From a virus, in IMG/VR virus record IMGVR_UViG_3300043778_000098, positions 1 to 64,000 of that record: DNA of 64,000 nt, one strand, 5' to 3'. Below are positions 5,666 to 58,376 of this stretch, piece after piece (positions within the stretch are counted from its first letter, which is position 1; each line of letters begins with the position of its first letter). The notes under the pieces were generated by a model. It worked only from the letters and a program-made list of their open reading frames with translations. It did not search any database and was not told the origin of the DNA. The translations under genes and the position numbers were made by a program.

Positions 5666-6844
5666 GTGAGCAGCCCCCTGGTCTCAGCCGGGACGCCGCA
5701 GATCGAGACCTCCAACTTCACCGGCCTCATCACCCCGTCCTACGGCCAGGCGACGACGGCCGGTAACGTCGCGGTCGCCTGGCTCCAGTGCAACTCCGGC
5801 AGCGCGACCGACCCGTTCAGCCTCGACTCCGGGACCGGCTGGGAGCAGGCCGCAGTCGGCGGCGCGGCGTTCGGCTGGTCGGGCATCTGGTGCAAGCGCG
5901 GCCTGGGCGCCGGGGAGGCCCCGCCGCAATTCGCGATAGCCTCCGGCGACGCCACCGGCGGGATGCTGGCCGAGTTCGACGGCAGCATGATCTCCGGCAT
6001 ACTCGACCAGCCCGGCGACGGCGGCTCGGCGGGGGCCACCGAGACGGCGGCCTGCGCGGCCCCCGACGCCGGGCCCGGCGAGCTGATCGTCTTCGCGGCC
6101 AACTACAACGGCGGCGGCAGCGCCACCACCATCGACGTCACGATGAGCGACTCGTCAGGCGCCCCGGTGACGCCCGTCGTCTACGACAACCCCGGTGACA
6201 CGACCGGCTGGAAGTACGTCTTCGCGTGGGGGCAGGCTGGCGAGGCCGGGGCGGTCGCCGACACGGCGACGTCCGTCCTCGGCGTGTTCAGCGAGGGCGG
6301 CTGCTGCATCGCCTCGATCAGGGCGACCGACCAGGGGGCAGGGGCCTTCTCGGCCGCCGGGGCCCTGTCGGCCGCCGCGAGGGCCACCGCGAACGCCGCC
6401 GCCGCGCTGGCGGCCACGGGCTCGCTGGCAGGGCAGGCCGTCGTCGCCAGGCGGGCCCAGGGGGGCCTCGCTGCCGCGCCGGGGCTGTCGGTCTCCGCCC
6501 GCGTCGTCAAGGCGGCCCAGGCGACCCTGTCCGCCGCGCCATCGCTGGGCGTCCACGGGAGCGTCCTCGCGGCCGGACTCGCCTCCCTGGCGGCCACGGG
6601 GGCGCTCGCGGTGCGGGCCACGGCGGGGCCTGACCTGGAGGCGCTGTGGGAGGCGTACCAGGTCGCGGCGGCCGTCGCAGCCGCCAAGCGGCAGCAGTGG
6701 CGCATGATGCGCCAGGCAGGCGGCACCGACGGGACGGCCGGCTTCCTGTACGGGCAGGCGTACGAGGCCGAGCACCAGGAGGAGACGGCCTACCAGGCTT
6801 TCCTGGCCGCCCAGCGGGAGGTGCACCCCGGCGTCACGGGCTAG
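5666..6844 (+). CDS. putative virion protein (beta-rich domain plus Ala-rich repeats)
   Basis: N-terminal domain clearly paralogous to 19790..20500. Confidence 0.65.
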   Translation: MSSPLVSAGTPQIETSNFTGLITPSYGQATTAGNVAVAWLQCNSGSATDPFSLDSGTGWEQAAVGGAAFGWSGIWCKRGLGAGEAPPQFAIASGDATGGMLAEFDGSMISGILDQPGDGGSAGATETAACAAPDAGPGELIVFAANYNGGGSATTIDVTMSDSSGAPVTPVVYDNPGDTTGWKYVFAWGQAGEAGAVADTATSVLGVFSEGGCCIASIRATDQGAGAFSAAGALSAAARATANAAAALAATGSLAGQAVVARRAQGGLAAAPGLSVSARVVKAAQATLSAAPSLGVHGSVLAAGLASLAATGALAVRATAGPDLEALWEAYQVAAAVAAAKRQQWRMMRQAGGTDGTAGFLYGQAYEAEHQEETAYQAFLAAQREVHPGVTG

Positions 6845-7279: not shown

Positions 7280-7540
7280 TCAGCCCGGCGGGAAGAGGCC
7301 GAGGACCAGGGCCGCCTCCTCGGGGGGGACGATCGCGGCGCAGACCTTCCCGTCGAGGCCGATCAGCCAGGTGACCTGGCCGGTCCTCGACGCCAGGTCG
7401 GCGGCCAGGCGCAGGTCGTAGTGCTCGCCGGGATCCAGGTGCCCCTCGTCCACTACCAGCCTCACGAACTTGTCCACGGCCAGCCTCACCGCCTCGGCCT
7501 CGCCGGCCTGCTCAGCCGGGTCGTTCCGCTCTGTCGCCAT
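7280..7540 (-). CDS. hypothetical protein
   Basis: GGAGG RBS; promoter motif at 7571-7592. Confidence 0.65.
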   Translation of the reverse strand: MATERNDPAEQAGEAEAVRLAVDKFVRLVVDEGHLDPGEHYDLRLAADLASRTGQVTWLIGLDGKVCAAIVPPEEAALVLGLFPPG

Positions 7541-14132: not shown

Positions 14133-14256
14133 CTTCTTCTCCCGGGGACTCTGCTGATTCGACTGCTCTTCGCTTGAGACGACAATAACAAGAAACCTTG
14201 TATTGCGCAACGCGAACCCCGGCTCCCCCGGAAGAGTGGAGAGACCGGAGGGGATC

Positions 14257-17200
14257 GTGCTCAAGTACGCGGCGCTGGAGATGCTCGACGCGTGGCGCCA
14301 GCCGACGGCGGGCGGGATCTCCCGCCTCGCCCACCGGGTCGCGTTCCACTACGACCCGCGCCCCGGCTACCTGTACGTCCGCTCCCGGATGATCTCCAGC
14401 CGGACCAACGACAACCACGACACGTTCCCCGCCGGGGAGATCGAGAAGGGCTACACGACCTTCCTCGGCAAGCCCGTCTTCGTCAACCACAACAACGCCA
14501 ACCACCGCAGGGCCCGTGGCGTCATCGTCGCCGTCGCCCTGCACCGCGACCGCACCCGCGACGGCAGCCCCGACACCTGGGTCGAGGGCCTCATGGAGGT
14601 CGACGCGGTCAGGTTCCCCAAGCTGGCGAAGGCGATCCTGGAGGGCAGGGTCAACCGCACCAGCATGGGCGTGGACGTCGACTGGTCCACCTGCTCGGCC
14701 TGCGGCAACAAGGCCACCTCCCCGGCCGAGTACTGCAAGCACCTGCCCGCGATGAAGGGCCGGAAGATCCGGCAGCGGAACGCCAAGACCGGCAAGGTGG
14801 AGGAGCGCCTGATCCACGAGATCTGCGCCGGGCTCAGCTTCTTCGAGAACTCCCTGCTGGTCGAGGACCCCGCCGATCCCTCGGCCTTTTTGCTCGGGGA
14901 GCCTGACACGCGAGGGCTACACATGTCTCCACGTTCGGCCAGCTCGAATCCTGGAGATCGCCGCGCTCGAAACGCCGTAACGCCCGGCGATGTCCAAGAG
15001 GCTGAGCTGGCCTCGCTTCGCACATCCGTTGCCGGTCGCTACCAGGGGCAGAAGTTCGTATTTGATGACCCGGACGTCGGCGTCGGTGAGTTTGACAGCC
15101 GGGTTGCGTACGCCCGGCAGGCTGCGCCCCTTGGCCACCATGTCGGCCGAGTTGACCGCGTTGGTGCCCAGGAACCAGTGCATGGAGTTCATGCAGATCT
15201 TGAAGTCGCACGAGTGGCAGACGACAAAGCGCGGCGGAATAGGCCCTCGCAGCAGCTTCCAGCCATAGCGATGCGCGCGGACGCTCGTCCGTCTCGCGTC
15301 CGCCAGAGAGAAGCGCGGGTACCCGCTGTCGAAGGTTCCGCCCGTCCACGGGTTGCAGAAGCCAGGCCCTGCGCTGAAATCGATCAGCGCGAAGTACCGG
15401 TCAACCTCCGACACCGTTCTTACGAATCGTCCGTCCAGTTCACACCTGCCGACCATGGTGTTAATCATAGCCGAGAACCGGACGCACGGGGCATGGAGAA
15501 GGCCGCCGGGCTCCGCCCGGCCCAGGCCCGCCCGGCCCAGGCCCGCAGGCCGTTCGGCGAGCTGGCGCCCCACGAGCAGCAGGCGGTGGCCCTCTACCAC
15601 CGGCAGATGCTCGAAGAGGGGAACGCCCCCCAGGGCAGCACCACCGGCGACTACCTGTACGAGCCCCGCCAGGAGCCCAGGGGCGACTTCATCAACCGCT
15701 ACATGGACGCCGACGACGAGTTCAAGCGGGAGTACGGGCGCGGGGCGGCCGACTGGGAGGCCCACCACCAGGACACAGTGGCCCGCCACCCGATCCCCGC
15801 CTACCCGCCCGAGGGCCGGTGGCCGCTGATCGTCAGCGACGCCAACCCGAACTACATCGACGACGGCTACCACCGGATGCACTCCTACATGCGGGACGGC
15901 GCCACCGAGATCCCCACGATCAGGATGCACCCCAAGAGGGCCTCGAAGACGGCCGCCGCCGGGGACCCCGACTTTAGGGACCTCATCCCCAATTCCTGCA
16001 CCCAGTGCGGGAAGCCGGTGCACTACCGCCCCGGCGCCGGCAGGAACGGCACCTACCCGTGGCGGCACCGGCACCAGGCCATCGAAGACCACGCCGCCGT
16101 CCCGTCCAACCCCGACGACAGGCGGCCGTCGCAGAACGCCACCTTCGGCGGCACCACCTGCCTGATGTGCCACGAGCCGGTGAAGATCAACCTGAACGCG
16201 CTGGACACCGACACCGGCGGCTGGCACCACCACGACGGCATGAAGCGCGACCACCCCGCCATCCCGAAGGACGCCCGCGCCGTCTACGACGCCATCCCGG
16301 GCATCAGGGCGCAGCATGACCAGGCCCGCCAGCAGATCCGCGAGCACCTGCACCGGCAGTTCGAGCAGATGGAAGGCAGGCCGCTGCCCCGGCGCCCGAG
16401 AGGCGACGAGGACCGGATGCCGCCCGACCCGTTCACGGCCAGACGCAAGAGGGCCAGGCGCCAGGCCGCCGGCCGCTTCCGCGAAGAGTTCACGCACTGC
16501 TCCAATTGCGGGGTCCCGCTGCTGGACGCCGACGACATCAGCGCCGCCGACTCGCCCGGCGACTGGTCGCACCACGGCTACCCGCACCTGTGCATGAACT
16601 GCGCCATCGGGCCGATCTCCGACGAGGGGACCATCCCCGGGACTCCCGGCAAGCCGCACCCGATCTTTCCGGGCAACAAGGGCGGCTATCACCTTCGCCC
16701 GGGGCTGGCAGGCGACCCCATGCCCACCGACCGCCTTCCCGAGAGCTACCGGAACTGGGAGCCGGGCGACGCGGTCCGGCAGTCCACGTCGAGCCGGAAG
16801 ACGGCCTACGGGGAGACCCGCGTGCCGCCCCAGGTGGACACGCTGCGGATGGACGAGTGCCCCGTCTGCGGCGAGCACAACGTGTGGTCGGGCAGCCGGT
16901 GCCCGGTTTGCGGCTTCGTGGTGCCGCCCAGTGTCTTCCGCGATCCCGACACCGACAAGGCGCGGCAGGTGCGCGACCAGCTCGACGCCGACGGCGAGGT
17001 CACCGAGGACCCGCAGGACCCCCAGGGCCAGGAAATGGGCGAGGAGGAGCAGATCGGCAGCGGCGATGACGCCGACGACCAGCTCACCCACCCGGACCAG
17101 ATCGCCCCGGACGGGGTGCCGGTCGTGCAGGGCGAGGGCGGCCCGGTGCCCGGCGAGGAAGAGGGCGCGCAGGCGGGGCCGCCCCCCGAGGAAGAGGGCG

Positions 17201-18453
17201 AAGAGCAGGGCGAGCCCGGCGGGATCCCCGGCGACGCCGGCGAGGAGGGCGGCCCTCCCGTGGACCAGGAAGAGGAGCCAGGCGACGAGCTGGAGTGCCC
17301 CGCGTGCGGCACCACGTTCGAGACCGACGCCTACGCCCAGCCGGGCATGCCGTGCCCCGCCTGCGGCATGGCCAACCTCCACCCGATCGACGAGAGCGGC
17401 GAAGACGGGGAGTTCCCGCCCGATGACGGCGACCCTGACGGCGAGGAGGAGGAGGGCGACGGCCCCCAGAAGGATCAGGAAGACGATCCGTCCGCTCCGG
17501 GAGACGAGAAGGAAGAGGACGAGGACATGCCAGCAAAGACAGGCGCCGCGCTCATGCAGGCCCAGGCGCGGAGGATCGCCGAGCAGTCGGCGATGATCGA
17601 GGCGCTGTCGGCCCAGCTGCGCTACCTCGCCTCGGCCGCCGGGGTCGGGCGGGAACTCGACGAGGTCGGCCGCAGGGTGATGCGGCGCCACGCCGACATC
17701 ATGAACCCGGCCAGCCCGGTGCCCGACCCGCCCGAGGGGCCGCCGTCGGAGACCACCGAGCAGGCGCTGATGCCGGAGGCGATGGACGACCCGTCGCGCC
17801 CCGGCGCCACCCCGGGCGCCAACTCCCGGGTGCCGGCCGCGCAGACCACCACGGCGATCACCCCCGGCGTGGAGATGCAGACGCCCCCGGCGACCAACCT
17901 GGTCGACGTCACCGCGCCGGTCCAGGGCACCAACCCGTCGCAGGACGGCGGCGTGCCGATCGAGCAGCGCAGGATCGAGACCGATGTGCGCATTGACCCC
18001 GACCCGCTGAAGGCGCACGGCCCCGGCATCGGCGGCCAGGGCGACAACGGCGCCGCGTTCCCGTGGATGCTGGACGCGCGGATGCCAGACCAGGGCGGCC
18101 AGCCCGGCCAGGGCCAGCGCGCGGCGTCGCTGCACTCGCAGCCGGGCGAGGCGGAATCCTCGCGGCGCACCTTCGGGGCGATCCGCCTGGCGAGGCTCCG
18201 GGTCCAGGCGGGCCTCGCCCAGGGCGACGAGCTGGCCGTAGCCGAGCGCATCGAGAGGGACGCCTCCCTGTCCACCGCGATGATCGAGCACGACATCTCC
18301 ACTCTGGAGCAGGTCGGGGCTGTGGCCCGCCCCCAGGCCCCTCTCCAGCGGCAGGCGGCCCGCTCCGCCCCGTCGCTGGCGTCGGTGGGCGCGGCCAGCC
18401 AGTACGCCCCGGCCGCCGCCGACGACCTCGACGGCTCGGACCTGTTCCTGTAG
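14257..18453 (+). CDS. prohead (capsid maturation) protease / scaffold polyprotein
   Basis: GGAGGGG RBS; NDNHDTF, FLGKPVFVNH, TSMG...CSACG, FFENSLLVEDPAD protease region; also a ParB-like DDGYHR segment, zinc fingers and a scaffold-like C-terminus. Confidence 0.8.
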   Translation: MLKYAALEMLDAWRQPTAGGISRLAHRVAFHYDPRPGYLYVRSRMISSRTNDNHDTFPAGEIEKGYTTFLGKPVFVNHNNANHRRARGVIVAVALHRDRTRDGSPDTWVEGLMEVDAVRFPKLAKAILEGRVNRTSMGVDVDWSTCSACGNKATSPAEYCKHLPAMKGRKIRQRNAKTGKVEERLIHEICAGLSFFENSLLVEDPADPSAFLLGEPDTRGLHMSPRSASSNPGDRRARNAVTPGDVQEAELASLRTSVAGRYQGQKFVFDDPDVGVGEFDSRVAYARQAAPLGHHVGRVDRVGAQEPVHGVHADLEVARVADDKARRNRPSQQLPAIAMRADARPSRVRQREARVPAVEGSARPRVAEARPCAEIDQREVPVNLRHRSYESSVQFTPADHGVNHSREPDARGMEKAAGLRPAQARPAQARRPFGELAPHEQQAVALYHRQMLEEGNAPQGSTTGDYLYEPRQEPRGDFINRYMDADDEFKREYGRGAADWEAHHQDTVARHPIPAYPPEGRWPLIVSDANPNYIDDGYHRMHSYMRDGATEIPTIRMHPKRASKTAAAGDPDFRDLIPNSCTQCGKPVHYRPGAGRNGTYPWRHRHQAIEDHAAVPSNPDDRRPSQNATFGGTTCLMCHEPVKINLNALDTDTGGWHHHDGMKRDHPAIPKDARAVYDAIPGIRAQHDQARQQIREHLHRQFEQMEGRPLPRRPRGDEDRMPPDPFTARRKRARRQAAGRFREEFTHCSNCGVPLLDADDISAADSPGDWSHHGYPHLCMNCAIGPISDEGTIPGTPGKPHPIFPGNKGGYHLRPGLAGDPMPTDRLPESYRNWEPGDAVRQSTSSRKTAYGETRVPPQVDTLRMDECPVCGEHNVWSGSRCPVCGFVVPPSVFRDPDTDKARQVRDQLDADGEVTEDPQDPQGQEMGEEEQIGSGDDADDQLTHPDQIAPDGVPVVQGEGGPVPGEEEGAQAGPPPEEEGEEQGEPGGIPGDAGEEGGPPVDQEEEPGDELECPACGTTFETDAYAQPGMPCPACGMANLHPIDESGEDGEFPPDDGDPDGEEEEGDGPQKDQEDDPSAPGDEKEEDEDMPAKTGAALMQAQARRIAEQSAMIEALSAQLRYLASAAGVGRELDEVGRRVMRRHADIMNPASPVPDPPEGPPSETTEQALMPEAMDDPSRPGATPGANSRVPAAQTTTAITPGVEMQTPPATNLVDVTAPVQGTNPSQDGGVPIEQRRIETDVRIDPDPLKAHGPGIGGQGDNGAAFPWMLDARMPDQGGQPGQGQRAASLHSQPGEAESSRRTFGAIRLARLRVQAGLAQGDELAVAERIERDASLSTAMIEHDISTLEQVGAVARPQAPLQRQAARSAPSLASVGAASQYAPAAADDLDGSDLFL
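14917..15456 (-). CDS. HNH homing endonuclease nested antisense in the protease gene
   Basis: RAHRYGW...VVCHSCD...C.N..H..LGTNAVNSADM plus C-terminal HTH; TATGAT -10 box 7 nt before ATG (alternative start 15468). Confidence 0.85.
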   Translation of the reverse strand: MVGRCELDGRFVRTVSEVDRYFALIDFSAGPGFCNPWTGGTFDSGYPRFSLADARRTSVRAHRYGWKLLRGPIPPRFVVCHSCDFKICMNSMHWFLGTNAVNSADMVAKGRSLPGVRNPAVKLTDADVRVIKYELLPLVATGNGCAKRGQLSLLDIAGRYGVSSAAISRIRAGRTWRHV

Positions 18454-38762: not shown

Positions 38763-39167
38763 CTAGCTAAACTCGCCGAGCAGCACCCGCATGATCGTCT
38801 CGCGGGTCAGCCACCCGCTCTCCTTGCCCGAGTAGAGCCGACTTCGGCGCTCGGCCTCCTCGGGCGGCAGCGGCCGGATGAACGAGCCGAGGTACCCGAG
38901 CAGTTCGAGGTCGGCCATGCCGTGGGCGTAGGCGCACCCGCCGTCCTGGCAGGCGTGATCGTCGCCAGTGGGCCAGTAGATCAGCGGGGTGCCATGGACG
39001 GGGCAGGTGCACCTCTCGTCACACCGATGCGGTTTGCCTGGCAGCGCCCTCCTCTTGCGCTCCGACGGCAGCATCGTCGGCAGCGGTGGAGGCGGGGATT
39101 CCTCCATGAGGTAGAGGCCGGCTATATCGTCCATGTCGGACCACTTAGGCTCGTCCGGAGTGCTCAT
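38763..39167 (-). CDS. Cys/His-rich hypothetical protein
   Basis: CDERCTCPVH...HACQD..C...HG. Confidence 0.6.
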   Translation of the reverse strand: MSTPDEPKWSDMDDIAGLYLMEESPPPPLPTMLPSERKRRALPGKPHRCDERCTCPVHGTPLIYWPTGDDHACQDGGCAYAHGMADLELLGYLGSFIRPLPPEEAERRSRLYSGKESGWLTRETIMRVLLGEFS

Positions 39168-40207
39168 GTCTTCCTTCTGACGTTAACGTTCTTCGACTGG
39201 TTGCACCCGAAGTGCGCTAGCTGGGCGTTCTCCAGGGAATGAGCGCCTCCACGGGCGACCGGGATGATGTGGTCGATGCTTTTGGACATGAGGTTGATCT
39301 TTCCAGTACCACGATCGCGATAGGGAAGGTCAGGATCGATCGGCACGAGGCAGAGCTGGCAGATACCGCTGTCGCGCCCCCAGATGAATTTCCTGTCCCT
39401 CTTGGAACTAAAAGTCCGAGGAGCGCGAACCCTGGCCTCAGGTCCGTCGGCCCACCGCTTTCCCGAGAGAACATCAGCCAGCCACCGCCGGTTGACATTG
39501 TATTTCTTCGCTAGCGCAGTCTGCATTCCGTAGCGTCGCCCGGCTTCCTCGTATTCGGCGCGCACCATGTCGACGAACTGCCGGGTGGCCGTTGAAGCGT
39601 GATGGCGCTCGCCGCGCCCCGGGCCGGTAGCCCTGCCTTTGGCCCTCATGTCGGCCGTGTTGCCTGCGGGGGTGTCCTTGAACCAGTGGCTCTCGTTGCA
39701 GCACGGCGGGTTGTCGCAGCGATGGCAGACCATCGTCTCCTGCGTCATCTTGTCGTCCGGGTGGATCTGGTCCCAGGCCCATCGCTGCGCCCGGACCGTG
39801 ACGTACTTCCCGTCCTGCGAGAAGGTGAGGATCGGGTAGCCGTCAGCGTCCCTGCCCTCTGTCCACGGGTGGCAGGCGTCTGCCCCGCTGCTGCGGTCGA
39901 CTCGCGCTTCGTATTTCTCCCACGGGGAGTTTGAGCCGTCGCGGGGCTTGACGCGCCAGTGGGCCAGATTCTGGCACGACCTCAGGCCGCAGGTGTTGCG
40001 CAGCCCGTACCCGGCGGGGACGGGGCCGCGCGAGTTCCGCCACGCCCAGGCGTGCGCTCCGCCCTCTCGATGTCTGCCGTCGTCGTCAGTCCAGGAGAAC
40101 TGGGCGTTGCCGTACTTGTCGATTTTCCCGCTCCAGCCGGTGCAGCCGTCGTCCTGGGGGACCAGCTTCTCCTCGTACCTTTGCCAAGGTTTCTTGCTAG
40201 TGCTCAT
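39164..40207 (-). CDS. multi-domain HNH endonuclease
   Basis: C..W...AH..AW..C....C.N..H; VCHRCDNPPCCN..H; CQLC...SIDHIIP...N.Q.AH..CN. Confidence 0.85.
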   Translation of the reverse strand: MSTSKKPWQRYEEKLVPQDDGCTGWSGKIDKYGNAQFSWTDDDGRHREGGAHAWAWRNSRGPVPAGYGLRNTCGLRSCQNLAHWRVKPRDGSNSPWEKYEARVDRSSGADACHPWTEGRDADGYPILTFSQDGKYVTVRAQRWAWDQIHPDDKMTQETMVCHRCDNPPCCNESHWFKDTPAGNTADMRAKGRATGPGRGERHHASTATRQFVDMVRAEYEEAGRRYGMQTALAKKYNVNRRWLADVLSGKRWADGPEARVRAPRTFSSKRDRKFIWGRDSGICQLCLVPIDPDLPYRDRGTGKINLMSKSIDHIIPVARGGAHSLENAQLAHFGCNQSKNVNVRRKT

Positions 40208-40325
40208 GGCTCGAACTGTAGCAGAAGTTGGAGCATGAATCGAAGCGTAAAATCCAAATGCCCCACCAGATACAACTGGTGAGGCATCGGATGATGGTAC
40301 TAGATATATGCTCTGACCTGGGGTT

Positions 40326-41225
40326 TTAGTACCAGCGAGCCCACATGCGGGGCCGTGCGGCCACAGATCCGGCGATACGCGTCGGAGCGTAGTTTCCGTA
40401 GGTTCCGCCGCTGACCAGAACTCTCGGGCTGCCGTTCATGATGTGGCGGATCTTGAAGACGTCCAGCAGGCCCTTCAGCTCGGCCGTCTCGTCCTTCACC
40501 ACCTCGCGCCACCGGTCGGCGTAGTCGCGGCGGTCCATCCTGGCCACCGGCGGCCCCGCGAACTGCGGCTGCTCGGTGTAGGAGCGGATCAGCTGCTTGA
40601 CGCACTCGACGTAGGCGTAGCTGGCCAGCAGGCCGCCCCAGAACTGGATCGGGTACTGCGGGCCGCCGTTGCCGTCGAGGGTGTAGGAGGACCACGGCTG
40701 GGCGGCGGCGTTGATCTTCTGGAGGGCGATCCCCATCATCTGGGCGGCCCGGCCCCGGCTCCAGTGCGACTGGAAGTAGGCCTGGAGGTTGGGCCCTCCC
40801 CCGGCCGAGTCGAACAGGTCGGCGAACCGCACCCACACCTGGGAGTTGAGGAAGTCCTGCATCTCCGGCGGCAGCGCGTCGTAGTGCGGGTTGGCCGGGC
40901 CGATCTCCAGGTAGGAGGCGTACTGCTGCGGCTGGCCGCCGACCGCGTACGACCAATCGAGCTGCGCGTAGCCGGGGGTCTGCGTGTCGGCGCTGGTCGG
41001 GGTGATGACGTAGACGCCCGCCTGCTGCCGCGCGGCCGTCAGCTCGTCCACGAGGGCGACGGTGCCGTCCGGGTTGTCCATGAAGAGGCGCCCGGTGACC
41101 GACTGGCCGTCCGGGTCGCCCGGCTGGCCGCCGATGTAGACCGCCAGCGTCAGCGGCGGCGCGGAGAACTGGGACACGTAGGCGCGCTCGGTCCAGTCGA
41201 CCAGGCCCGGGTCGGGGATCGTCAT
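40326..41225 (-). CDS. head-to-tail adaptor-like protein
   Basis: WVRFADLFDS..GGP, LIRSYTEQP, DRRDY..RW; resembles Bxz1-type neck proteins as recalled. Confidence 0.65.
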   Translation of the reverse strand: MTIPDPGLVDWTERAYVSQFSAPPLTLAVYIGGQPGDPDGQSVTGRLFMDNPDGTVALVDELTAARQQAGVYVITPTSADTQTPGYAQLDWSYAVGGQPQQYASYLEIGPANPHYDALPPEMQDFLNSQVWVRFADLFDSAGGGPNLQAYFQSHWSRGRAAQMMGIALQKINAAAQPWSSYTLDGNGGPQYPIQFWGGLLASYAYVECVKQLIRSYTEQPQFAGPPVARMDRRDYADRWREVVKDETAELKGLLDVFKIRHIMNGSPRVLVSGGTYGNYAPTRIAGSVAARPRMWARWY

Positions 41226-56026: not shown

Positions 56027-57565
56027 ATGACGATTCCGTCTTTCACGTCCTACCAGCAGCCGGGCGTCTACGTTCAGGACGTCTCGACGCCGATCGTCAC
56101 GACGCCGCTGGTGCCGTCGCAGACCCTGACGCTGGTCGGCCTGGCGCAGGGGTACCGCACGGCCGTCCAGTCGCTGCTGCTGTACTACGCCACCGCGACC
56201 CCGCTGACCTACATGGGCGTCTTCACCACCGAGCAGAGCGGGCCGCCCGTCATCGCCGCCCCGGTGGTCACCACCCTGGCCGGCACCGTCCTGACGGCGG
56301 GCATCGACTACACGCTCTCCACCGTGGCGGACCCCTCGGGCAACCCCGGCCTGGCGGTGACGAGCATCAGCCGGGTGAGCACCAGCTCCAACGTCTCCGA
56401 CGGCCAGCAGGTGCAGGTCGTCTACAACTACGCCGACGCGGGGTACTTCCTGCCGCAGGTATTCACCGACTCCCAGTCGGTGATCAACGCCTACGGGCAG
56501 CCGTTCCTCTCGACGGCGCCCGCCTCCCCGACGGCCTCCCAGGTCGCCAACCCGCTGTCGGCGGCGGCCCAGGTGGCGTTCACCAACGGGGCGACCACGC
56601 TGGTCTGCGTGGCGCTCAACCCGGCCGACGGGACGCTCACCGAGCAGCTCAACTCGGCCTACGCCAAGATCGCCACCAACCCGGCCTGCACGATCGTCGT
56701 CCCGGCGCTCACCGACTCGCTGACCCCGGAGTCGGGCACGGCGGCGGCCTACGCCCAGGAGCTGGCGCAGGCGCTGAGCGCCGCCATGTGGGCGGCCTAC
56801 AACGACGGCTTCCCCCGCGTCGGGTTCTTCGGCCTGCCCGTCAACTACAGCGAGTCGAGCCTGCCGGTGCCGTCGCTGGCCAGCAGCATCGCGAGCCGCA
56901 GGCTGGTGCTCGCCTACCCCGAGATCGCCCTGCTCTACAACAGCGCCGCCAACCAGACCTTCCAGGCGTCGGGCCAGTACCTGGCGGCGGCGCTCGGCGC
57001 CCGCCTGTCGTCGCTGCCGGTCGACACCGGCCTGACGAGCCAGGTGCTGAGCGGGTTCGCCGGGCTCCCGGCGGCCGAGACGGCGGCGATGACCAACGCG
57101 TTCATGAACTCCCTGGCCAGCGCCGGGGTGGCGGTCTGCTACGTCAACTACCAGGGGGCGCTGGTCTGCCGCCAGGGCCTCACCACCGACATGAGCGCCC
57201 TGAACTACCAGGAGGTCTCGATCGTCCGGCAGTCGGACGCGCTGCTGACGGCGGTGAGCCAGGGCCTCCAGGCCAGCGGCCTGATCGGCTCGCCGATCAC
57301 CGGCAGCACGGTCAGCGCGGTGCAGGAGGCCGTCCTCGGGATCCTGGAGGCGGCGGTCTCCAACGGGGTCATCGTCAGCTACACGAACCTGACGGTGACG
57401 CAGCAGAGCTACCCGGGCGGTTCGCCCACGGTCATCTCGGTCACGTACTCGTACCTGCCCGCGCTGCCGCTGAACTTCATCACGGTGCAGCAGAGCGTCG
57501 ACCTGTCGACCGGCCTGGTCGCCTCCACGACGTCCACCCAGAACGCGAGCGGCACGGGGACCTAG
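56027..57565 (+). CDS. contractile tail sheath protein
   Basis: Y.QPGVYVQ N-terminus, RQGLTTD...EVSIVRQ.D, Y.PALPLNFI.V. Confidence 0.88.
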   Translation: MTIPSFTSYQQPGVYVQDVSTPIVTTPLVPSQTLTLVGLAQGYRTAVQSLLLYYATATPLTYMGVFTTEQSGPPVIAAPVVTTLAGTVLTAGIDYTLSTVADPSGNPGLAVTSISRVSTSSNVSDGQQVQVVYNYADAGYFLPQVFTDSQSVINAYGQPFLSTAPASPTASQVANPLSAAAQVAFTNGATTLVCVALNPADGTLTEQLNSAYAKIATNPACTIVVPALTDSLTPESGTAAAYAQELAQALSAAMWAAYNDGFPRVGFFGLPVNYSESSLPVPSLASSIASRRLVLAYPEIALLYNSAANQTFQASGQYLAAALGARLSSLPVDTGLTSQVLSGFAGLPAAETAAMTNAFMNSLASAGVAVCYVNYQGALVCRQGLTTDMSALNYQEVSIVRQSDALLTAVSQGLQASGLIGSPITGSTVSAVQEAVLGILEAAVSNGVIVSYTNLTVTQQSYPGGSPTVISVTYSYLPALPLNFITVQQSVDLSTGLVASTTSTQNASGTGT

Positions 57566-58314
57566 CTAGGCGACCTGGAGGCTCGGCGCGGAATTGTCTT
57601 CCCCTTGATGGCGCTTCCGTTCCGGGCCTTCACGACGGGAGGGGCGATCTGGTTGAGGTGCTTCCAGGTCCGCCCCGTGATTGCCCACCGGAGGACGGTC
57701 TCGCTGACCACGCCGCCGAGAGTTTGGTGCACCTCCCATGTCATTTTGCCGTCGCGGGCCAGCCTGCGCGCCTCGATGACGAGTTCATCCGTCAGCTTGG
57801 CCTGGGCGTTCTTCGCGCCGTTCTGCTGACGCGTCCGGCTTCTGCCTCTCAGCGACTTGTCCCTCATGTTCTCGGCGTGAGTTCCGTCGTACAGGTGCTT
57901 TGGTCTTGAGCAGGGAGGATTATCGCAGTGGTGGTTCCCCTGGTTCGCGGGGAGACAGCCGTCTGTGAGGAACATCGCCACGACGCTGGATGCGGATACC
58001 GTGCTCTGCTCCGTCCTCGGGTGGTTCCAACGGAACGATCCGTAGTTGTCCGGCTCCGGGCTTCTTGCTCCCCGCCATTCCCAGCATGAGTCTTCGTCGT
58101 CGGTGATCCCCACTTTGGCCCAGAAGCGGAACTCCAGGTCGTCCAGGTCCAGAGGGCACTCTGACCGAAGTCTGTCCCTAGTCTCCTTGGCCCTTACTCG
58201 AAGCTCTCTGAGCTGTTTCCACAGATCGGTGATCTGGTCTTCGATTTCTTCTAGCTCTCCGAGCCCCGGAAGCCATGAGGCAAGCATTCGCAGCTGTTCA
58301 TCGGTGTACGCCAT
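57562..58314 (-). CDS. free-standing HNH endonuclease
   Basis: RFWAKV...CWEWRG...YG.F...HHCDNPPCSRPKHLYDGTHAENM.D; leaderless after TATACT. Confidence 0.9.
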   Translation of the reverse strand: MAYTDEQLRMLASWLPGLGELEEIEDQITDLWKQLRELRVRAKETRDRLRSECPLDLDDLEFRFWAKVGITDDEDSCWEWRGARSPEPDNYGSFRWNHPRTEQSTVSASSVVAMFLTDGCLPANQGNHHCDNPPCSRPKHLYDGTHAENMRDKSLRGRSRTRQQNGAKNAQAKLTDELVIEARRLARDGKMTWEVHQTLGGVVSETVLRWAITGRTWKHLNQIAPPVVKARNGSAIKGKTIPRRASRSPS

Positions 58315-58376
58315 GAGAACAGTATAGCCGTCATAACACTGGCTCGTGTTATGACATCAGGAGGTGAGATTTCTAA

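Follow-up and report, generated by a model that had tools for sequence, protein, structure and literature searches.

How may a homing endonuclease gene reside inside a phage gene that shows neither an intron nor an intein? This question is raised by IMG/VR virus record IMGVR_UViG_3300043778_000098, a 79.5-kb record of high G+C content, of which positions 1 to 64,000 were analysed (64,000 nucleotides, hereafter the window). On the plus strand of the window, a head maturation protease is fused to a long modular extension in a single gene (14257..18453), and an HNH homing endonuclease gene lies on the minus strand within it (14917..15456). Homing endonuclease genes (HEGs) are thought to persist in essential genes either concealed within an intron or intein or by dividing the gene in two. 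The comparison of 11 copies presented here points to a different solution: with a probability of roughly 0.8, the insert is a homing cassette that is read through by host ribosomes without RNA or protein splicing.

The antisense gene and its surroundings

The plus-strand open reading frame (ORF) containing the protease is free of stops from a TTG at 14203 to 18453, in agreement with the original prediction that the frame stays open across the insert. Most likely, the host gene starts at GTG 14257, downstream of the sequence GGAGGGG, and encodes 1398 amino acids. The HNH gene encodes 179 amino acids and ends in a TAG stop (14917-14919), which is the reverse complement of the host CTA codon at the same position. 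Each HNH codon has a host codon as its exact reverse complement, i.e., the gene is codon-aligned antisense to the host frame. It is located 8 codons past the last predicted strand of the protease domain. On its two sides are the similar peptides EPDTRGL (14899-14919) and EPDARGM (15475-15495), which are 576 nt (192 codons) apart in one frame. These positions, the spacing, and the relation between the HNH stop and the CTA codon are all as first reported.

The assignment to the HNH class, also predicted before, is supported by matches to HNH families of PHROGs (E = 7e-18 to 1e-15). In Pfam, the window copy stays below the cut-off of HNH_3 (17.9 vs 24.8 bits), and nine of the 15 members of its clade match this family (best E = 5e-9). 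The columns of the catalytic H/N/C motif are invariant across the 15 HNH homologues. A search of PDB sequences with the HNH profile gave no match at E <= 1, and in the AlphaFold2 model the catalytic core has a predicted local distance difference test score (pLDDT) below 50. The cassette is absent from all cultured phages of the phage collection; the nearest cultured relatives of its HNH protein are free-standing HNH genes of other phages with at most 42% identity. The window itself has two HNH paralogues, both on the minus strand (39167-40435 and 57565-58356), which are 32% and 26% identical to the cassette HNH and have a G+C content at third codon positions (GC3) of about 0.75.

Ten further copies of the cassette (L014, L015, L021, L022, L036, L037, L039, L040, L119, and L121) were found in related uncultured phages by homology searches with the protease domain and with the HNH protein. 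Because the loci were found by protease or HNH homology, the openness of the host frame did not bias the sampling. The ten HNH proteins are 54-80% identical to that of the window.

The HNH gene has its own -10 box, TATGAT (15464..15469, minus strand), whose presence the original prediction had noted. It lies exactly 7 nt upstream of ATG 15456, and a TANNNT box is found at exactly this distance from the HNH ATG in all 11 copies. ATG 15456, which opens the conserved sequence MV[SG]R, is probably the true start; the gene itself had been recognized correctly, whereas the upstream ATG 15468, proposed earlier as its start, falls within the -10 box. A two-hexamer promoter scan reported no minus-strand promoter, and it is the conservation in all copies on which the reading as a -10-only promoter rests. 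In actinobacterial promoters, a -10 box so near the ATG fits a leaderless transcript. The arrangement is therefore what would be expected of an HNH mRNA that is leaderless or nearly so.

Read in the host frame, the antisense gene and its promoter form a filler of 185 codons without a stop (14920..15474). GC3 of this filler is only 0.57, and its first codon position, which is the third position of the HNH codons, has a G+C content of 0.79; GC3 of the host gene is 0.97. The insert thus bears the coding signature of the minus strand only. In an AlphaFold2 model of the host protein, the filler (residues 238-451) has pLDDT of 31-40 and no secondary structure, and it is predicted to be disordered.

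The host frame is kept in all copies

In every one of the 11 copies, the host frame crosses the HNH gene uninterrupted and continues in phase on the other side. No host-frame stop is found in any of them, and none terminates where the protease part ends, as a split of the mobE/mobA type (see below) would require. Two of the copies have an HNH GC3 of only 0.65-0.70. The copies differ in the length of the spacer that separates the HNH stop from the RG[LMV] codon (-3, 0, 9, 12, 15, and 27 nt), and the phase is always kept. Among the nine copies checked, GC3 of the frame downstream of the cassette is 0.85-0.97, showing that this is the true coding frame there. Also in nine copies, only two of the six frames are free of stops, that of HNH and the host frame aligned with it codon by codon; the other four hold 2-12 stops each.

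The two open frames are constrained in different ways. Pairwise synonymous divergence (dS) among nine copies tested is 0.34-1.8 and the ratio of nonsynonymous to synonymous divergence (dN/dS) is 0.2-0.45, demonstrating purifying selection on the HNH protein. Compared over the same codon columns, the 11 copies are 63% identical when read as HNH vs 42% when read in the host frame, and 2442 changes are silent only for HNH vs 408 that are silent only for the filler. As judged from these substitutions, the constrained protein is the HNH endonuclease, and the filler is constrained mainly to be without stops.

Stop-making codons are avoided

Since the two genes are codon-aligned, stops in the host frame can arise only from the HNH codons TTA, CTA, and TCA. 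None of the three is used in any copy: CTA accounts for 0 of 146 codons of its family, TCA for 0 of 92, and TTA is absent while TTG is used nine times. A-ending codons of other families are found in the same genes (GTA, 17/147; GGA, 51/197; CGA, 29/176). When each alignment column-state is counted once, which discounts shared ancestry, stop-making codons amount to 0/105 and the other four-fold families to 56/393 (Fisher p = 7e-7). The difference between CTA and GTA alone is also significant (p = 0.003).

Comparable genes use these codons regularly, CTA at 6-10% and TCA at 16-30% overall. In genes of the window with GC3 of 0.74-0.85 the frequencies are 6.3% and 17.5%, and in 14 distant HNH genes with GC3 >= 0.75 they are 7.3% and 15.8%. 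The two HNH paralogues in the window have 8 and 5 codon-aligned antisense stops. From the codon usage of comparable genes, 2-3 stops would be expected per copy, and the probability of having none is 0.05-0.13 for each. For the window copy alone, it is about 0.08, to be multiplied by 1/3 for being in frame. Taken by itself, the open frame of the window is therefore only mildly unusual and not beyond chance; its significance comes from the comparison of the 11 copies.

Codons other than those making stops are also depleted. GCA, CCA, and ACA together account for 6 of 380 codons in the 11 cassettes (window 14920-15456), or 5 of 173 column-states, compared with about 9-10% in controls (binomial p = 7e-4). 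Owing to this avoidance, the filler is nearly without Cys and Trp (0-2 and 0-1 per copy, respectively, in nine copies counted). Possible causes of the depletion are selection on filler composition, protection from single mutations that would create TGA, and a context bias.

Several observations weigh against reading these patterns as the mark of a translated filler. High-GC genes often show open codon-aligned antisense frames; antisense stops are missing from six of the 14 distant high-GC HNH genes used as controls, although these genes are shorter and have fewer Leu and Ser codons. The host gene has a shadow ORF of its own on the minus strand, 1255 codons long. The copies share ancestry, so that p-values overstate their independence, which counting column-states and the dS of at least 0.34 lessen and do not abolish. 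A context bias against C-A at codon positions 2-3 could explain the missing TCA, not the missing CTA. The count of 11 copies leaves out seven further HNH homologues of the clade (among P0003-P0010). Finally, it is from comparing sequences that all support for read-through comes.

Other explanations of the open frame

If the open frame were only a by-product of high-GC codon usage, the gene could be a split one, in which the protease carries a junk tail and the extension is made from an internal start such as ATG 15493. The figures given above for a single copy and for the antisense-open controls are compatible with this, the window and L014 have an in-frame ATG just past the insert, and gene-splitting endonucleases are known (e.g., mobE in nrdA of phage Aeh1 and mobA in T4; PMC2988022). 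We nevertheless consider a split gene very improbable. A by-product of base composition would not be expected to leave all 11 copies open, including the two of lowest HNH GC3, to remove CTA, TCA, and TTA specifically while GTA, GGA, and CGA are used normally, or to hold every length variant of the spacers in phase, and no copy has the stop at the protease end that a split implies.

Restarts are also missing in several copies. In L015 and L022, the first 50 codons past the cassette include no in-frame ATG, GTG, or TTG, and in L036 the first in-frame start codon after it falls inside the conserved zinc-ribbon module, so that the extension cannot generally start separately; L037 and L039 have no usable start past the insert either. 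M15493 was considered as a conserved internal start and is ruled out, because the relatives have Leu at this position and several cassette-bearing alleles lack the motif. Separate translation from ATG 15493, which had been named among the findings that would overturn the read-through proposal, is very improbable. Moreover, none of the four CheckV-complete genomes that bear the cassette has a second full protease gene, and hence the interrupted gene must work.

The codons could also be avoided for the sake of the endonuclease's own translation, with the host frame unselected and the extension dispensable. TTA, CTA, and TCA are rare in high-GC hosts, and the phage tRNA array has no tRNA for Leu-TAA, Leu-TAG, or Ser-TGA. 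However, other low-GC3 genes of the same phage, including the two HNH paralogues, use CTA and TCA freely. The tRNA set does not explain the pattern in the cassette, since GTA makes up 12% of its codon family there without a tRNA-Val(TAC), and ACA and CCA are avoided even though cognate tRNAs for both are encoded. Nor would an effect on HNH translation account for the maintenance of phase in the spacers, and this explanation seems very improbable to us.

Removal of the insert after transcription or translation would explain how an essential gene tolerates it. The insert would then be a self-splicing intron that has escaped recognition, or resemble an intein whose endonuclease is encoded antisense, and antisense endonuclease ORFs do occur in non-canonical inteins of actinobacteriophages, including those in minor capsid proteins (bioRxiv 10.1101/2025.01.02.630785). 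Removal is nevertheless scarcely to be expected here, as the 555-nt insert is taken up by the HNH ORF and its promoter, with no room for a Hint domain of about 135 residues or a ribozyme core, and an intron would not need an insert that is stop-free and in phase. In line with the original prediction, which had seen no intein motif or group I core, the insert has no match to Rfam intron families at E <= 10 and an RNA fold z-score of -0.85, and the filler of five copies has no Pfam match, Hint and intein families included, at E <= 10. An unusual class of ribozyme may lie beyond the Rfam models. The ends of the insert (HMSP...VNH-S, NVPP...RVHSS, and similar) do not have the intein terminal residues, i.e., Cys or Ser at the start and His-Asn followed by Cys, Ser, or Thr at the end.

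Read-through of a homing cassette thus agrees best with the open frame of every copy, the absence of the stop-making codons, and the lack of restarts in several copies, and the central proposal of the original prediction, that a homing gene spares its host gene by being read through, is upheld. That the filler is in fact translated is what selection against stops would suggest.

Distribution and flanks of the cassette

All 11 copies occupy the same junction of the host gene, and they are scattered over the protease-domain tree. The tree requires seven gains or losses of the insert, at least four of which are forced by strongly supported branches, and sister pairs with and without the insert exist (L036/L011 and L014/L019). 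The DNA upstream of the junction differs as well. In the 14 codons ahead of the cassette, GC3 is 0.53 (59/111) in insert-bearing alleles vs 0.88 (213/241) in insert-free alleles, and farther upstream both are about 0.9. In the window, this recoded flank with many A/T-ending codons spans 14875..14919 and ends in the first copy of the duplicated peptide. Probably, the flank is either carried along with the cassette by co-conversion or provides target-site immunity. Together, the scattered distribution and the recoded flank point to a mobile, homing element.

An insert-free allele with a recoded flank is also found (L010:6001-6840; GC3 8/14). It has the same peptide, PSAFVLGTPDARG, as L039, which carries the cassette, and may either have lost the cassette precisely or be immune to it. 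L027, otherwise counted among the insert-free alleles, has a weak antisense match to the C-terminal half of HNH just past its protease domain (6630-6815; 30% over 60 residues, E = 3.8e-4), which may be a decayed cassette. An in-frame scar of the cassette was suspected in L018 and L019 and is not supported.

Insert-free alleles have the sequence ...LLGEPDARGMAKAA... only once, as the alignment proposed with the original prediction confirms; the insert and the duplication in the window are both real. The second copy of the peptide (15475..15495) is native-like. It runs on into the extension and its DNA is close to that of the insert-free L006 and L011. The duplication, noted earlier in the window, does not belong to the element in general; it is confined to the window, L014, and L015 (7, 10, and about 12 codons, respectively) and the other eight copies have none. 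It may have arisen from one-sided repair. Since phages are hypervariable 3' of the junction, homology may exist only on the upstream side. Just 3' of the second copy, the window has a perfect 15-nt tandem duplication (15514-15543, RPAQA RPAQA), where relatives have a KTAAG junction motif.

The host protein

The relatives of the window phage are uncultured phages of about 150-166 kb, and its more distant kin are Mycobacterium cluster C phages. The N-terminal 230 or so residues of the host protein match phrog_2774 (E = 3e-58) and phrog_18299, which is annotated as head maturation protease (E = 1.4e-23). Mycobacterium phage LinStu encodes a protein of 1286 amino acids in a single ORF (gp97), whose N-terminal domain is 45% identical to that of the host protein, and its gene is located two genes upstream of the major head protein gene. 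Because LinStu gp97 is one ORF that shares this N-terminus, the family can be described as one in which a single ORF encodes both the protease and a long extension fused to it. A fold search with a model of the protease domain gave only weak, tied matches (Z 4.5-5.2), with the varicella-zoster virus and T4 gp21 proteases among unrelated folds. The identification as a protease therefore rests on PHROGs and gene order.

The protease domain (14257..14898) has a GC3 of 0.97. The extension (15496..18453), which consists of zinc ribbons, an acidic tract, and a C-terminal part, has a GC3 of 0.94-0.97 and is in phase with the filler. It is modular in the window (15496-16000 and about 15950) and in L006, L007, L008, and L031, where the Ala-rich motif A[AS][KR]TAA(A)G repeats at module boundaries. 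L006 and L007 have the zinc-ribbon module directly after the protease, and the window, L008, L031, L037, and L039 have an additional module between two Ala-rich junction motifs. The position of the cassette corresponds to the first of these junctions. Trimming of the filler at an EKAA site following the insert, which had been suggested earlier, cannot be a general requirement, since L036, L037, and L039 have lost the xKAA motif or have other residues in its place.

The length of the protease-extension frame varies among phages. It is shorter in L008 (the host frame ends at 7452, 549 amino acids) and in L025 and L026 (695 amino acids), which could be due to other interruptions or to truly short extensions. 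The host ORF of L021 is unusually long (1800 amino acids). The genome of L021 also has a 41-residue duplicate of protease residues 19-59 with 61% identity, about 750 nt upstream of the real gene (G003:C1:110828-110959).

A model for the cassette

The cassette would consist of three parts: the recoded target flank, the antisense HNH gene, and its -10 promoter, from which a leaderless or near-leaderless mRNA would be made. It would be seated in a flexible junction just past the protease domain of what appears to be the phage's only head maturation protease gene. TTA, CTA, and TCA all have synonymous alternatives, and selection on the phage would remove them from the endonuclease gene at no cost to the HNH protein sequence. 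Host ribosomes would then not stop after the protease but go on across a meaningless, disordered filler of about 185 codons and translate the extension, producing one continuous protein, and the HNH protein would be made from its own minus-strand transcript. In co-infection, HNH presumably cuts insert-free alleles at the junction, and repair would copy the cassette in.

It is possible, though in our view rather doubtful, that codon-aligned antisense embedding is a distinct and recurrent lifestyle of HEGs, next to those in introns, in inteins, and as free-standing genes, in which the host frame shapes the synonymous codons with respect to both stops and filler make-up, and that the protease may cut the filler at the domain junction with a result resembling that of an intein.

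This case adds statistical evidence for a further way in which an HEG may persist: it is inserted backwards and in phase, its reverse strand is kept free of stops, and the host would translate through it. It implies that a selfish element can be shaped by coding constraints acting on both strands. HEGs of this kind will be missed by standard gene callers, or the host protein will be annotated with about 190 residues too many. The site also marks a junction of the head protease polyprotein that tolerates a large disordered insertion, and this may help in dissecting an unstudied protease family shared with Mycobacterium cluster C phages.

Comparison with known systems

Free-standing HNH genes that split their host genes include mobE in nrdA of phage Aeh1 and mobA in T4 genes 39/60 (PMC2988022). 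As in the window, a mobile gene of the HNH type is found inside an essential phage gene and is tolerated because the host function survives. The difference is in how it survives: in the mobE and mobA systems two polypeptides are made, each with its own stop and start, whereas here there is neither a stop nor a conserved restart and the frame is continuous.

Non-canonical inteins with an antisense homing endonuclease ORF (Gorbalenya 1998 and Gogarten 2002, cited in bioRxiv 10.1101/2025.01.02.630785) are similar in another respect. As far as the account in that preprint goes, they too have an antisense gene in an open host frame, with both strands open, and occur in actinobacteriophages, some of them in capsid-associated genes. 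Their filler, according to the same account, lies within a Hint domain and is spliced out, whereas no splicing domain was found here and the filler would stay in the primary translation product.

Along with these inteins, the closest published parallel is the ShiLan domain, a "hidden HNH" insertion in the DNA methylase genes of mycobacteriophages that is read through with neither intron nor intein (Arsenault, Gosselin and Gogarten 2025, PMC11855218; PMC9957025). Both are insertions in a phage gene, ShiLan an actively homing one, and in both the insert is predicted to form an unstructured stretch in the host frame, described as a loop in ShiLan (PMC11855218). The present cassette shares with it a host frame that reads through without stops and without any splicing element found. 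Unlike the HNH of ShiLan, however, which lies on the same strand as the host gene in the third frame, the HNH gene here is on the opposite strand, is codon-aligned with the host frame, and has a conserved -10 box. The host gene is not a methylase gene but encodes a head protease polyprotein, and stop-codon avoidance has been quantified over 11 copies. No paper describing an antisense, intein-less form was found in the literature. Read-through of a hidden HNH is thus already known from ShiLan, and what is new in this locus is its antisense, intein-less read-through layout in a head-protease gene.

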